Positions 32,506 through 54,300 of a stretch of 64,000 nt of DNA are shown piece after piece (the stretch's first letter is position 1; the number at the start of each line of letters is the position of its first letter). The notes below the pieces were generated by a model. That model made no database searches. It was not told the DNA's origin and saw nothing but the letters and a program-made list of their open reading frames with translations. Position numbers and translations under genes: made by a program. Source of the DNA: Escherichia coli (GTDB lineage: Bacteria; Pseudomonadota; Gammaproteobacteria; Enterobacterales; Enterobacteriaceae); the NCBI RefSeq assembly GCF_022846255.1, contig NZ_AP025682.1. The stretch is one strand, 5' to 3'.

Positions 32506-32604
32506 GCCGGATGCGGCACAAACGCCTTATCCGGCCTACAAAAGTTTGCAAATTCAATAGATTACAGAATTCATGTAGGCCTGATAAGCGAAGCGCATCA
32601 GGCC
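32506..32604. repeat. pair of inverted REP elements (BIME) between sbp and pfkA
   Basis: gccggatgcggcacaaacgccttatccggcctac and gtaggcctgataagcgaagcgcatcaggcc. Confidence 0.8.
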
Positions 32605-34705: not shown

Positions 34706-34786
34706 AAATACTCCCGCTATCAACTGACGGTAGTATAACGGAAGCAAATCATCTGCAATGCATTAAGCAGCAGGCAAATTGAGGAT

Positions 34787-34844
34787 AAAAAAAACCCCCA
34801 CATCATGTGGGGGAAGACAGGGATGGTGTCTATGGCAAGGAAAA
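34787..34844 (-). ncRNA. cpxQ: CpxQ-type sRNA region: cpxP 3' UTR with intrinsic terminator (boundaries approximate)
   Basis: directly downstream of cpxP stop; hairpin cccccacat/atgtggggg followed by eight U; 5' boundary not determined from sequence. Confidence 0.55.
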
Positions 34845-34853
34845 CAGGGTTTA

Positions 34854-35354
34854 CTACTGGGAACGTGAGTTGCTACTACTCAATAGCTTCAACGATGAAC
34901 TTTTTTGCCATTGCGTCACGTCGCGCAACTGCTCCATTCGTTGTTGATGTTTCTCGTTTAAAACCGCTTGCTGCTCCGGCGTTAACAGGCGATACATTTG
35001 GTTGCGGACTTTTGCCATCTCAACCTGACGAGCAATTTGCTCATTCGCCATTTTTTCTGCCTGTGCGCGCACAGCGTTTTCATCAAAATTTTCTGCGGTG
35101 ACAAGGCGATGCATTGTCTCCAGTTCGCTAACATTAACAGGAGGCTGTTCGTGCCGGGCCTGTTGCATAAGATCTCGCATCTGCTGACGCTGATGTTCGG
35201 TTAAACTTATGCCGTCGAACATATGGCTCTGCGTACTGCGCTGCGTAAGTTCTTCACCCGGATGCCAGTTATCGCCTGAACCGACTTCAGCAGCGTGGCT
35301 TAATGAACTGACTGCCAGCGTTGAGGCCATGACGGCAGCGGTAACTATGCGCAT
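34854..35354 (-). CDS. cpxP: periplasmic Cpx pathway regulator CpxP
   Basis: 166 aa from [23 protein letters not shown]; divergent from cpxRA. Confidence 0.9.
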
Positions 35355-35503: not shown

Positions 35504-36202
35504 ATGAATAAAATCCTGTTAGTTGATGATGACCGAGAGCTGACTTCCCTATTAAAGGAGCTGCTCGAGATGGAAGGCTTCAACGTGATTGTTGCCCACG
35601 ATGGGGAACAGGCGCTTGATCTTCTGGACGACAGCATTGATTTACTTTTGCTTGATGTAATGATGCCGAAGAAAAATGGTATCGACACATTAAAAGCACT
35701 TCGCCAGACACACCAGACGCCTGTCATTATGTTGACGGCGCGCGGCAGTGAACTTGATCGCGTTCTCGGGCTTGAGCTGGGCGCAGATGACTATCTCCCA
35801 AAACCGTTTAATGATCGTGAGCTGGTGGCACGTATTCGCGCGATCCTGCGCCGTTCGCACTGGAGCGAACAACAGCAAAACAACGACAACGGTTCACCGA
35901 CACTGGAAGTTGATGCCTTAAGTCTCAATCCTGGTCGCCAGGAAGCCAGCTTCGACGGGCAAACACTGGAGTTAACCGGTACTGAGTTTACCCTGCTCTA
36001 TTTGCTGGCACAGCATCTGGGTCAGGTGGTTTCCCGTGAGCATTTAAGCCAGGAAGTGCTGGGCAAGCGCCTGACGCCTTTCGACCGCGCTATCGATATG
36101 CACATTTCCAACCTGCGTCGTAAACTGCCGGATCGTAAAGATGGTCACCCGTGGTTTAAAACCCTGCGTGGTCGCGGCTATCTGATGGTTTCTGCTTCAT
36201 GA
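35504..36202 (+). CDS. cpxR: two-component response regulator CpxR
   Basis: 232 aa, MNKILLVDDDRELTSLLKELLEMEGF. Confidence 0.95.
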   Translation: MNKILLVDDDRELTSLLKELLEMEGFNVIVAHDGEQALDLLDDSIDLLLLDVMMPKKNGIDTLKALRQTHQTPVIMLTARGSELDRVLGLELGADDYLPKPFNDRELVARIRAILRRSHWSEQQQNNDNGSPTLEVDALSLNPGRQEASFDGQTLELTGTEFTLLYLLAQHLGQVVSREHLSQEVLGKRLTPFDRAIDMHISNLRRKLPDRKDGHPWFKTLRGRGYLMVSAS

Positions 36203-37572
36203 TAGGCAGCTTAACCGCGCGCATCTTCGCCATCTTCTGGCTGACGCTGGCGCTGGTGTTGATGTTGGTTTTGATGTTACCCAAGCTCGATTCACGCCAG
36301 ATGACCGAGCTTCTGGATAGCGAACAGCGTCAGGGTCTGATGATTGAGCAGCATGTCGAAGCGGAGCTGGCGAACGATCCGCCCAACGATTTAATGTGGT
36401 GGCGGCGTCTGTTCCGGGCGATTGATAAGTGGGCACCGCCAGGACAACGTTTGTTATTGGTGACCACCGAAGGCCGCGTGATCGGCGCTGAACGCAGCGA
36501 AATGCAGATCATTCGTAACTTTATTGGTCAGGCCGATAACGCCGATCATCCGCAGAAGAAAAAGTATGGTCGCGTGGAACTGGTCGGTCCGTTCTCCGTG
36601 CGTGATGGCGAAGATAATTACCAACTTTATCTGATTCGTCCGGCCAGCAGTTCTCAATCCGATTTCATCAACTTACTGTTTGACCGCCCGCTATTACTGC
36701 TGATTGTCACCATGCTGGTCAGTACGCCGCTGCTGTTGTGGTTGGCCTGGAGTCTGGCAAAACCGGCGCGTAAGCTGAAAAACGCTGCCGATGAAGTTGC
36801 CCAGGGAAACTTACGCCAGCACCCGGAACTGGAAGCGGGGCCACAGGAATTCCTTGCCGCCGGTGCCAGTTTTAACCAGATGGTCACCGCGCTGGAGCGC
36901 ATGATGACCTCTCAGCAGCGTCTACTTTCTGATATCTCTCACGAACTGCGCACCCCGCTGACGCGTCTGCAACTGGGTACGGCGTTACTGCGCCGTCGTA
37001 GCGGTGAAAGCAAGGAACTGGAGCGTATTGAAACCGAAGCGCAACGTCTGGACAGCATGATCAACGATCTGTTGGTGATGTCACGTAATCAGCAGAAAAA
37101 TGCGCTGGTTAGCGAGACCATCAAAGCCAACCAGTTGTGGAGTGAAGTGCTGGATAACGCGGCGTTCGAAGCCGAGCAAATGGGCAAGTCGTTGACGGTT
37201 AACTTCCCACCTGGGCCGTGGCCGCTGTACGGCAACCCGAACGCCCTGGAAAGTGCGCTGGAAAACATTGTTCGTAATGCTCTGCGTTATTCCCATACGA
37301 AGATTGAAGTGGGCTTTGCGGTAGATAAAGACGGTATCACCATTACGGTGGACGACGATGGTCCTGGCGTTAGCCCGGAAGATCGCGAACAGATTTTCCG
37401 TCCATTCTATCGGACCGATGAAGCACGCGATCGTGAATCTGGCGGTACAGGTTTGGGGCTGGCGATTGTAGAAACCGCCATTCAGCAGCATCGTGGCTGG
37501 GTGAAGGCAGAAGACAGCCCGCTGGGCGGTTTACGGCTGGTGATTTGGTTGCCGCTGTATAAGCGGAGTTAA
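36199..37572 (+). CDS. cpxA: two-component sensor histidine kinase CpxA
   Basis: 457 aa, H-box SHELRTPLTRL; overlaps cpxR stop. Confidence 0.95.
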   Translation: MIGSLTARIFAIFWLTLALVLMLVLMLPKLDSRQMTELLDSEQRQGLMIEQHVEAELANDPPNDLMWWRRLFRAIDKWAPPGQRLLLVTTEGRVIGAERSEMQIIRNFIGQADNADHPQKKKYGRVELVGPFSVRDGEDNYQLYLIRPASSSQSDFINLLFDRPLLLLIVTMLVSTPLLLWLAWSLAKPARKLKNAADEVAQGNLRQHPELEAGPQEFLAAGASFNQMVTALERMMTSQQRLLSDISHELRTPLTRLQLGTALLRRRSGESKELERIETEAQRLDSMINDLLVMSRNQQKNALVSETIKANQLWSEVLDNAAFEAEQMGKSLTVNFPPGPWPLYGNPNALESALENIVRNALRYSHTKIEVGFAVDKDGITITVDDDGPGVSPEDREQIFRPFYRTDEARDRESGGTGLGLAIVETAIQQHRGWVKAEDSPLGGLRLVIWLPLYKRS

Positions 37573-37583
37573 ACTCCGCATTT

Positions 37584-37667
37584 GTAGGCAGGATAAGGCG
37601 TTTACGCCGCATCCGGCATTTGAGCAGGATGCCTGATGCGACGCTGATAGCGTCTTATCAGGCCTAC
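37584..37667. repeat. pair of inverted REP elements (BIME) between cpxA and yiiM
   Basis: gtaggcaggataaggcgtttacgccgcatccggca and gcctgatgcgacgctgatagcgtcttatcaggcctac. Confidence 0.8.
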
Positions 37668-46175: not shown

Positions 46176-46675
46176 GCCGGATGCGGCACAAGTGCCTTAT
46201 CCGGCCTACAGGTCAGCAACAGTTGTAGCCCTGATAAGACGCGACAGCGTCGCATCAGGCATTGATTGCCGGATGCGGCACGAGTGCCTTATCCGGCCTA
46301 CGGGTCGGCAATAGTTGTAGGCCTGATAAGACGCGACAGCGTCGCATCAGGCATTGATTGCCGGATGCGGCACGAGCGCCATATCCGGCCTACGGGTCGG
46401 CAATAGTTGTAGGCCTGATAAGACGCGACAGCGTCGCATCAGGCATTGATTGCCGGATGCGGCACGAGTGCCTTATCCGGCCTACGGGTCAGCAACAGTT
46501 GTAGGCCTGATAAGACGCGACAGCGTCGCATCAGGCATTGATTGCCGGATGCGGCACAAGTGCCTTATCCGGCCTACGGGTCGGCAATAGTTGTAGGCCT
46601 GATAAGACGCGACAGCGTCGCATCAGGCATTGATTGCCGGATGCGGCACGAGTGCCTTATCCGGCCTACGGGTCG
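46176..46675. repeat. tandem array of about 5.4 copies of a 92-bp BIME unit (two inverted REP elements per unit) between rhaA and rhaD
   Basis: unit starts at 46176, 46268, 46360, 46452, 46544 and 46636 with exact 92-bp period and a few point differences. Confidence 0.9.
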
Positions 46676-51318: not shown

Positions 51319-54300
51319 ATGCAGGTCAGCAGAAGGCAGTTCTTTAAGATCTGCGCTGGCGGTATGGCAGGCACCACGGCGGCGGCACTGGGTTTTGCAC
51401 CCAGCGTAGCACTCGCGGAAACCCGGCAGTATAAACTGCTGCGCACCCGCGAAACCCGTAATACCTGCACCTATTGTTCCGTAGGCTGTGGGCTGTTGAT
51501 GTACAGCCTCGGTGACGGAGCAAAAAACGCCAAAGCATCTATCTTCCATATCGAAGGTGACCCGGATCACCCGGTCAACCGCGGAGCACTTTGTCCGAAA
51601 GGCGCTGGCCTGGTGGATTTCATCCACTCCGAAAGCCGTCTGAAGTTTCCGGAATACCGTGCGCCAGGTTCTGATAAATGGCAGCAAATCAGTTGGGAAG
51701 AGGCGTTTGATCGCATCGCCAAACTGATGAAAGAAGACCGCGATGCAAACTACATTGCGCAAAACGCCGAAGGCGTGACTGTTAACCGCTGGCTCTCCAC
51801 CGGGATGCTGTGTGCTTCCGCGTCGAGTAACGAAACCGGCTATTTAACGCAAAAATTCTCCCGCGCGCTGGGTATGCTCGCGGTCGACAACCAGGCGCGT
51901 GTCTGACACGGACCAACGGTAGCAAGTCTTGCTCCAACATTTGGTCGCGGTGCGATGACCAACCACTGGGTCGACATCAAGAATGCCAACCTCGTCGTGG
52001 TGATGGGCGGTAACGCCGCTGAAGCTCACCCGGTCGGGTTCCGCTGGGCGATGGAAGCCAAAATTCACAACGGCGCGAAGCTGATTGTGATCGATCCTCG
52101 CTTTACGCGTACGGCGGCGGTGGCTGACTACTATGCCCCTATCCGTTCCGGTACTGACATTGCTTTCCTGTCAGGCGTATTGCTGTACCTGCTGAACAAT
52201 GAAAAATTCAACCGCGAATACACCGAAGCCTATACCAACGCCAGCCTGATCGTGCGTGAGGATTACGGCTTTGAAGATGGCCTGTTCACCGGCTACGACG
52301 CGGAAAAACGCAAGTACGATAAGTCCACCTGGACTTACGAACTGGACGAAAACGGCTTCGCCAAACGCGATACTACCCTGCAACATCCACGTTGCGTGTG
52401 GAACTTGCTGAAACAGCACGTTTCCCGCTACACGCCAGATGTGGTTGAAAACATCTGTGGTACGCCAAAAGACGCATTCCTGAAAGTCTGCGAATACATC
52501 GCCGAAACCAGTGCTCACGATAAAACAGCGTCGTTCCTCTACGCCCTCGGCTGGACGCAACACTCCATCGGTGCGCAGAACATCCGTACGATGGCGATGA
52601 TCCAGTTGCTGCTCGGCAATATGGGGATGGCTGGCGGCGGCGTTAACGCCCTGCGCGGTCACTCCAATATTCAGGGGCTGACCGACCTGGGGCTGCTGTC
52701 GCAGAGTCTGCCAGGTTACATGACGTTGCCAAGCGAGAAGCAGACCGATCTGCAAACTTACCTCGCTGCCAACACGCCAAAACCACTGCTGGAAGGCCAG
52801 GTCAACTACTGGGGCAACTACCCGAAATTCTTCGTCTCAATGATGAAGGCATTCTTTGGTGATAAAGCGACGGCGGAAAATAGCTGGGGCTTTGACTGGT
52901 TGCCGAAGTGGGATAAAGGCTACGACGTCCTGCAATACTTCGAGATGATGAAAGAGGGCAAGGTCAATGGCTATATCTGCCAGGGCTTTAACCCTGTTGC
53001 CTCATTCCCGAACAAAAACAAAGTGATCGGCTGTCTGTCGAAGCTGAAATTCCTCGTAACTATCGACCCGCTGAACACTGAAACCTCTAACTTCTGGCAG
53101 AACCACGGTGAGCTGAACGAAGTTGACTCGTCGAAGATCCAGACCGAAGTGTTCCGTCTGCCATCGACCTGCTTCGCGGAAGAGAACGGTTCAATCGTTA
53201 ACTCTGGTCGCTGGTTGCAATGGCACTGGAAAGGTGCGGACGCCCCGGGGATTGCGCTGACTGATGGCGAGATCCTCTCCGGTATCTTCCTGCGCTTGCG
53301 CAAGATGTATGCCGAACAGGGTGGTGCGAACCCGGACCAGGTGCTGAACATGACCTGGAACTACGCCATTCCGCATGAGCCATCTTCAGAAGAAGTGGCA
53401 ATGGAGAGCAACGGCAAAGCGCTGGCCGATATTACCGACCCGGCAACCGGTGCGGTTATCGTCAAGAAAGGCCAACAACTTAGCTCGTTCGCCCAACTGC
53501 GCGATGACGGTACAACCTCCTGTGGCTGCTGGATTTTCGCCGGTAGCTGGACGCCGGAAGGCAACCAGATGGCGCGTCGTGATAACGCCGATCCGTCTGG
53601 CCTCGGTAACACGCTGGGCTGGGCATGGGCATGGCCGCTTAACCGCCGCATTCTGTATAACCGCGCCTCCGCAGATCCGCAGGGTAACCCATGGGATCCG
53701 AAGCGTCAGTTGCTGAAATGGGACGGCACTAAGTGGACCGGCTGGGATATTCCGGATTACAGCGCAGCGCCTCCGGGCAGCGGCGTAGGGCCGTTTATCA
53801 TGCAGCAGGAAGGCATGGGACGTCTGTTTGCCCTCGATAAGATGGCGGAAGGTCCGTTCCCGGAACACTACGAGCCGTTTGAAACGCCGCTGGGAACTAA
53901 CCCGCTGCATCCAAACGTTATCTCGAACCCGGCGGCGCGTATCTTTAAAGACGACGCCGAAGCATTGGGTAAAGCCGATAAGTTCCCGTATGTCGGAACC
54001 ACCTATCGTCTGACCGAGCACTTCCACTACTGGACCAAACACGCGCTGTTGAATGCGATTTTGCAACCAGAGCAGTTTGTGGAAATCGGGGAGTCGCTGG
54101 CGAATAAACTTGGCATTGCCCAGGGCGATACTGTGAAAGTCTCCTCCAACCGTGGCTATATCAAAGCCAAAGCGGTAGTGACCAAACGTATTCGCACGCT
54201 GAAAGCAAACGGCAAAGATATCGATACCATCGGTATTCCGATTCACTGGGGCTATGAAGGTGTTGCGAAAAAAGGCTTTATTGCCAATACGTTGACGCCA

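Follow-up and report, generated by a model that had tools for sequence, protein, structure and literature searches.

The 58 nt at positions 34787-34844 of the stretch of Escherichia coli chromosomal DNA analysed here (64,000 nt, hereafter the window), read on the minus strand, are almost certainly cpxQ, whose product is a small RNA made from the cpxP 3' UTR in the Cpx envelope-stress response; we put the probability of this reading at roughly 0.97. CpxQ is an already known and well-studied E. coli sRNA, and the copy described here is not a new kind of thing. The main value of the locus lies in its annotation; for the biology of the window it is minor, since this copy is a common allele of a textbook sRNA.

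The 3' UTR of cpxP carries cpxQ

Alignment of the locus with the K-12 reference showed that 57 of the 58 bases are those of the MG1655 ncRNA cpxQ (b4716, NC_000913.3 4106330-4106387), with both ends coinciding, and a wider alignment between MG1655 and the window was identical at 100 of 101 bases. The sole mismatch falls on the third base of the terminator loop (CpxQ nt 42, window position 34804, T on the plus strand), where the window has A and K-12 MG1655 has C, giving the loops UGA and UGC, respectively; the seed, the terminator stem and the U8 tail are the same in the window and in K-12 cpxQ. The order cpxA-cpxR <> cpxP-cpxQ-fieF also matches K-12, with cpxR and cpxA on the plus strand (35504-37572) and fieF following cpxP on the minus strand, and a 901-nt query around the locus returned at least 99% identity over cpxP and fieF in 5421 of 5426 E. 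coli records. In locus, strand relation to cpxP, 58-nt length and ends, the segment is the same as CpxQ of E. coli K-12 (b4716) and of Salmonella Typhimurium.

An initial annotation, made from the letters alone, had already named this region as CpxQ, and the sequence agreement, shared ends and K-12 synteny bear that identification out. The span it gave, 34787-34844, proved to be exactly that of annotated cpxQ, including the 5' boundary at 34844 that it had called approximate. The feature is present where it was placed; the strand, which had been left unstated, is minus.

The cpxP stop codon, TAG, occupies 34854-34856 on the minus strand, and the cpxP 3' UTR runs from 34853 to 34787 on the same strand, a length of 67 nt. 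Its minus-strand sequence is UAAACCCUG|UUUUCCUUGCCAUAGACACCAUCCCUGUCUUCCCCCACAUGAUGUGGGGGUUUUUUUU, where the bar marks the 5' end of CpxQ, or, divided into its parts (spacer, 5' region, the two terminator arms around their loop, and tail), UAAACCCUG UUUUCCUUGCCAUAGACACCAUCCCUGUCUU CCCCCACA-UGA-UGUGGGGG UUUUUUUU. It had previously been described as about 60 nt lying directly past the cpxP stop, which was right as to place and somewhat short as to length. The MG1655 annotation makes cpxQ 58 nt long and starts it at the tenth base past the cpxP stop codon. We also observed that cpxP ends in tandem in-frame stops, the TAG being followed by a TAA at 34851-34853 (minus strand), within the 9 nt that separate it from the predicted RNase E site. 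The coordinates of all features are collected in Table 1.

Table 1. Features of the cpxQ locus, with the basis on which each was placed; positions are those of the window unless another sequence is named.
Feature	Position	Strand	Basis or remark
CpxQ sRNA, 58 nt	34844 (5' end) to 34787 (3' end)	minus	Co-terminal with MG1655 cpxQ (b4716)
cpxP CDS (parental mRNA)	34854-35354	minus	Listed ORF reaches 35357 through an extra upstream ATG
9-nt spacer UAAACCCUG	34845-34853	minus	Between cpxP stop codon and CpxQ 5' end; from K-12 annotation
Seed / target-pairing region, CpxQ nt 1-31	34814-34844	minus	Conservation and cfa pairing
Predicted 5-bp hairpin AGACA/UGUCU, nt 14-18 with nt 26-30, loop CCAUCCC	34815-34831	minus	RNAfold MFE
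Intrinsic-terminator hairpin, 8 bp (6 G-C), loop UGA	34795-34813	minus	Fold, scan and covariation
U8 tail: transcription stop, presumed Hfq-binding 3' end	34787-34794	minus	Sequence; Hfq role from literature
Perfect CpxR box GTAAAACAACGTAAA	35434-35448	plus	cpxP-cpxR intergenic; sequence evidence
45-nt core common with P2-family attP, CpxQ nt 17-58 plus AUC	34784-34828	minus	Unoccupied attB
Integrase-cpxQ junction in an Erwinia genome	10670-10720 of L089		99%-identical integrase after cpxQ

A strong terminator that varies in sequence

The 3' end of CpxQ folds into a hairpin with a predicted free energy of about -14 kcal/mol, directly followed by exactly eight U. We scanned both strands of the window under strict terminator criteria (a perfect stem of at least 8 bp with at least six G-C pairs, a loop of 3-8 nt and at least seven T directly after), and found this to be the sole hairpin of such strength in the 64 kb; 200 shuffled versions of the window with preserved dinucleotide composition yielded none. 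A low-stringency scan had no discriminating power, finding 2 terminators vs 2.9 expected. Each arm formally offers nine complementary positions, but pairing all of them would leave a loop of a single nucleotide, and the physical stem comprises 8 bp closed by a 3-nt loop. The earlier description of a 9-bp G/C-rich hairpin and eight U was accordingly exact for the U run and one pair too long for the stem.

We then compared the terminators of the 46 distinct CpxQ sequences among the matches listed in the motif scan described below. Every one forms an uninterrupted helix of 6-9 bp, and 22 different stems are represented. The third tier from the loop is A-U in 8 of these distinct sequences, C-G in 17, G-C in 11 and U-A in 10, with no mismatch. 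Exchanging arms between species lowered pairing from the 100% seen with a sequence's own arm to 73%; the observed value was not reached in any of 2000 permutations. In these counts the stems were defined by RNAfold and the pairs were anchored on each sequence's own hairpin; a MAFFT alignment of 47 CpxQ sequences placed the terminator arms out of structural register and was not used for pair counts. The pattern indicates that the sequence of the terminator varies and its structure is kept, through compensatory changes. The U run measures 6-9 nt in all 105 CpxQ-like loci listed, the extraction itself having required at least six T.

The seed region is nearly invariant among CpxQ-like loci

To place the window copy among its relatives, species-representative genomes were scanned, as plain DNA, with the pattern TGTTTNCCTTGCCAN{6,11}TCCCTG, which places no constraint on the terminator. 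The scan returned at least 120 loci; the pattern specifies 19 bases exactly, so that lineages lacking the seed are invisible to it and the conservation of the bases it fixes follows from the selection itself. A CpxQ-like sequence ending in a hairpin and U run was present in 105 of the 120 matches listed, and a CpxP homologue (47-98% amino-acid identity) lies directly upstream in 102 of the 120. The taxa among the matches listed span Enterobacteriaceae, Erwiniaceae (Pantoea, Erwinia, Mixta), Yersinia, Dickeya, Brenneria and Lonsdalea. Fourteen of the listed matches come from unrelated phyla (Lachnospiraceae, Bacteroidales, archaeal MAGs and others); they lack both cpxP and a terminator and were discarded as chance hits. 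By our own estimate, a pattern with 19 fixed bases should match by chance about 13 times in 298 Gb. One further locus, from Buttiauxella (L115), has a CpxP homologue upstream and was set aside, its sequence stopping before the terminator.

At the 14 positions of the first 31 nt that the pattern leaves free, mean identity to the window across the 105 loci listed is 99.3%, with a minimum of 92.9%. Over the same loci, identity is 82% in the hairpin, 63% in the last 90 nt of cpxP and 52% in the 60 nt past the terminator. These figures suggest that conservation is higher in the CpxQ seed than in the cpxP coding sequence, among loci that were ascertained by the seed motif itself, and the CpxQ region has been described as the most conserved part of the cpxP gene (PMC9438474).

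The same figures bear on whether the segment could be a mere intrinsic terminator of cpxP, preceded by a stretch of 3' UTR with no function of its own. Every gene needs a terminator, and the hairpin with its U8 is a textbook example of one, but among the loci listed it is the 31 nt before the hairpin, 99% conserved, that surpass both the hairpin and the cpxP CDS. Termination as such would not require conservation of this kind. Published genetics, moreover, show target regulation by CpxQ (PMC6755755, PMC4817254), and we consider a terminator without a regulatory RNA extremely unlikely.

Within the seed region of CpxQ, the paired positions of the predicted AGACA/UGUCU hairpin are all invariant, so that covariation speaks neither for nor against it. 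Two departures from the window sequence were seen here: in several Pantoea species (L010, L045, L075, L105, L116, L119) a 1-nt deletion leaves UAGACACAUCCC for UAGACACCAUCCC and makes the loop of this predicted hairpin shorter, and the Lonsdalea seed carries a U31->A change.

Of 5426 complete E. coli genomes, all but one (5425) contain the 67-nt UTR, with an exact match in 4189 records. Beyond this species, the 58-mer of the window recurs without change in 26 of the 105 loci listed, including E. albertii, Enterobacter cloacae and Citrobacter, and it is the commonest of the 46 enterobacterial CpxQ alleles among the matches listed. The UGA loop is the majority allele both in E. coli and in other genera, and it is K-12 that has the minority form.

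Promoter, processing and target pairing

The cpxP-cpxR intergenic region holds the only perfect GTAAA-N5-GTAAA in the window, a CpxR box whose consensus is reportedly due to De Wulf et al. (2002, cited in PMC4817254). Judged by its position and its match to the consensus, this box probably directs synthesis of the mRNA that is processed to CpxQ.

A predicted RNase E site lies between G34845 and U34844 (CUG|UUUU), the same as in K-12, and places U at +1, +2 and +3. Set against the RNase E motif RN|WUU, in which U+2 is critical (PMC5222698), the site has the critical U+2, but its -2 position is U and not the purine of the motif.

Some 3'-UTR sRNAs, such as MicL and DapZ, have internal promoters. 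These precedents lend some plausibility to a separately transcribed sRNA gene, with its own promoter within the 3' end of cpxP and no processing; against it, a search for sigma-70-like sites on the minus strand at 34845-34950 found none. In the published work CpxQ depends on Hfq, measures 58 nt and is released from the cpxP 3' UTR by RNase E (PMC9438474, PMC6755755, PMC4817254, PMC5222698), its 5' end is a 5'-monophosphate left by RNase E processing (PMC6755755; PMC9438474), and constructs with an upstream start are processed to the same 58-nt CpxQ (PMC6755755), all of which tells against an unprocessed product of an internal promoter and makes such a gene very unlikely.

Release from the cpxP mRNA, the reading we prefer, has parallels in other sRNAs. 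SdhX, SroC, NarS and processed MicL, like CpxQ, are released by RNase E near a stop codon, with the parental terminator serving as Hfq module and with a 5'-P seed (PMC9438474, PMC5222698); their parents, seeds and regulons are unlike those of CpxQ. Peculiar to CpxQ are a parent that is a monocistronic stress-induced mRNA and an action within the pathway of the protein that this mRNA encodes.

The primary CpxQ paper is reportedly that of Chao and Vogel (2016; Mol Cell 61:352). Its findings are given here as conveyed by PMC9438474, PMC6755755 and PMC5222698. In the literature CpxR~P induces cpxP, the targets of CpxQ include nhaB, skp, agp, ydjN, fimA and cfa, and its 5' region acts as the seed (PMC9438474, PMC6755755, PMC4817254, PMC5222698); a text search of PMC4817254 found no details of processing and pairing.

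For cfa, the published pairing could be recovered in silico. CpxQ nt 1-31 and the MG1655 cfa 5' UTR form a predicted duplex of -25.7 kcal/mol (z = -3.9), and 1 of 500 shuffles was as low. In this duplex CpxQ nt 4-11 pair with cfa -142 to -135, setting C11 opposite G-135. C11:G-135 is the compensatory CpxQ-cfa pair that was tested by Bianco et al. and validated experimentally (PMC6755755). With RNAduplex, a crude test here, the translation-initiation regions of nhaB and skp gave z = -0.7 and 0.0, respectively, relative to shuffled seeds; these energies are uninformative and constitute no evidence against the published regulation.

By analogy with K-12 and Salmonella, processing, Hfq dependence and target regulation would be expected in this strain as well. 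Phosphorylated CpxR would switch on the cpxP promoter, and the transcript would pass through cpxP and halt at the hairpin-U8 terminator (34813-34787). An Hfq-guided RNase E cut nine bases past the stop codon (CUG|UUUU) would yield a 58-nt RNA with a 5' monophosphate, which Hfq would stabilise through the terminator and the U tail. The unstructured, invariant 5' part of CpxQ (nt 1-31) could then pair with mRNAs that include nhaB, skp, cfa, agp, ydjN and fimA, such that translation of the targets would be blocked or their decay by RNase E promoted, and the expected outcome would be a reduced inner-membrane protein load and a protected membrane potential.

The Rfam Hrs1 model is probably reversed

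A search of the whole window with Rfam 15 at gathering thresholds gave nothing at the cpxQ locus, and a permissive search (E<=10, 351-nt query) found no family named CpxQ; Rfam 15 seems to hold no CpxQ model. NsiR1, RyhB and OmrA-B, which appeared in the permissive search, match the hairpin and U tail only and were rejected as generic terminator look-alikes. The best match was RF02628 (Hrs1), on the plus strand at 34787-34859, antisense to cpxP, with 44.5 bits vs a gathering score of 56.4. As a family assignment it was likewise rejected, lying on the wrong strand and under the gathering score.

This match, the only sizeable one in Rfam (E = 1.4e-7), is the argument for a functional RNA on the plus strand, in the orientation of the RF02628 model. 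Such an RNA would begin with A8 and a hairpin and end without a terminator, which counts against it, as does the source paper on hrs1, which gives that gene a rho-independent terminator and the same direction as cpxP and fieF (PMC4070566 Table 1). In seven Erwiniaceae loci (L060, L064, L089, L026, L083, L010, L099) RF02628 scores above threshold, at 59.5-69 bits, and in 7/7 of them the strand it matches is opposite to cpxP and to the CpxQ core. The RF02628 consensus opens with A7 and then a hairpin, as a terminator does when read backwards. We regard a plus-strand RNA as next to impossible, and infer that the RF02628 model is reverse-complemented and too narrow.

With CpxQ on the minus strand, these two defects of the model, and not a want of homology, account for the score of RF02628 falling below threshold in E. 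coli. A missing match to a CpxQ model, proposed as a refutation in the initial annotation, therefore cannot refute the identity of the locus, as Rfam seems to have no such model and its Hrs1 model is probably reversed.

Hrs1 was described as an Hfq-dependent sRNA of Erwinia amylovora, encoded at 130070-130143 (plus strand) between cpxP and fieF in the same orientation and ending in a rho-independent terminator; it was seen by RNA-seq and Northern blot, was reduced in an hfq mutant and was classed as Erwinia-specific in the 2014 paper (PMC4070566). Its siting between cpxP and fieF, its co-orientation and its terminator identify Hrs1 as the Erwiniaceae orthologue of CpxQ, and the conservation seen here argues against its Erwinia-specific status. 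Hrs1 shares the CCUUGCCA...UCCCUGUCU core with CpxQ in the same gene interval; its Rfam model differs in being 74 nt long, in starting upstream of the CpxQ 5' end and in lying on the opposite strand.

The initial annotation had warned that the feature is easily missed, and indeed none of 27 sampled RefSeq E. coli records marks anything at the cpxQ position, which the curated K-12 record does annotate. We attribute the missing RefSeq annotation to the apparent lack of a CpxQ family in Rfam and to a Hrs1 model that is probably reversed and narrow. With RF02628 mended, automated annotation could mark cpxQ throughout Enterobacterales.

The 3' part of cpxQ is a prophage attachment site

The 67-nt UTR query matched 6099 places in 5425 E. 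coli genomes, 674 more than the number of genomes, with up to four in a single genome. One circular 32-kb element annotated as a plasmid (L125) carries a 45-nt core, CpxQ nt 17-58 plus ATC, at 2501-2545, with phage DNA on both sides. The core lies about 110 nt from an integrase gene, and the element also encodes tail sheath, gpD and ogr; to judge by these genes, it is a P2-family phage and not a plasmid. In a lysogen (L126) the core stands at both ends of a 31-kb prophage (at about 1812 and about 32951), each time with phage DNA on one side and host DNA on the other.

The order in E. coli KMi029 is fieF, the core only, a 31-kb P2-family prophage, its integrase, the full cpxQ and cpxP, which is the standard attR/attL layout, and integration regenerates an intact cpxQ. 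The window, by comparison, has a single copy of the core with host DNA on both sides and fieF directly after, and therefore carries an empty attB. The same junction is found in Erwinia sp. OLFS4, where the tyrosine integrase is identical at 323 of 326 positions (99%) to that of the E. coli phage; the CpxP of this genome is only about 48% identical to that of E. coli.

The cpxP-fieF interval is a known site of P2-type prophages, occupied by Wphi1 in E. coli W (PMC3032704) and, in an O157:H7 strain, by a prophage of 31 kb (PMC7609406). An insertion of about 31.7 kb lies in this interval in a Salmonella Infantis strain (bioRxiv 10.64898/2026.03.17.712176). The sRNA is unnamed in these three sources, and when the literature was searched for CpxQ in combination with attB, the results concerned attB in other contexts and held no statement equating the cpxP-fieF site with cpxQ. 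Equating the site with the 3' part of cpxQ refines known facts modestly, and it makes prophage entry at cpxP-fieF an insertion into an sRNA gene.

Comparable arrangements exist at other RNA genes. At cyaR, the site of the P2-type Wphi2, and at the ssrA att sites, as at cpxQ, attP copies the 3' part of the RNA gene and integration restores the gene; in the genome paper on E. coli W, the sites at cyaR RNA and cpxP-fieF appear next to each other (PMC3032704). The use of cpxQ as an att site, unlike its function as an sRNA, is a property of the DNA site, which in the window is empty. In the phage-borne 3' fragment of CpxQ, the presumed Hfq-binding terminator and the second half of the seed are retained. 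It is conceivable, if unlikely, that a near-invariant sRNA gene serves as a phage landing site across genera, with the phage-borne fragment, made from attP or attR, acting as a truncated regulator or decoy.

Other structured RNAs in the window

The Rfam search of the window returned several further matches. Five tandem naRNA4 (REP/BIME-type) matches, with 67-77 bits and a regular spacing of 92 nt, lie at 46228-46666 (minus strand), and a sixth, single naRNA4 copy is found just past cpxA at 37587-37664 (plus strand). The SECIS_3 selenocysteine insertion element was matched over its full length with 84 bits at 51901-51959 (plus strand); it presumably belongs to a formate dehydrogenase gene and follows closely on an in-frame TGA. 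Three other matches passed their gathering scores, namely the ClpQY (hslVU) promoter element at 17394-17451 (plus strand), the L31 ribosomal-protein leader at 12730-12782 (minus strand) and, as a borderline case (37.9 vs 37.6 bits), ES036/CssrF at 32541-32582 (plus strand), in the intergenic region downstream of pfkA.
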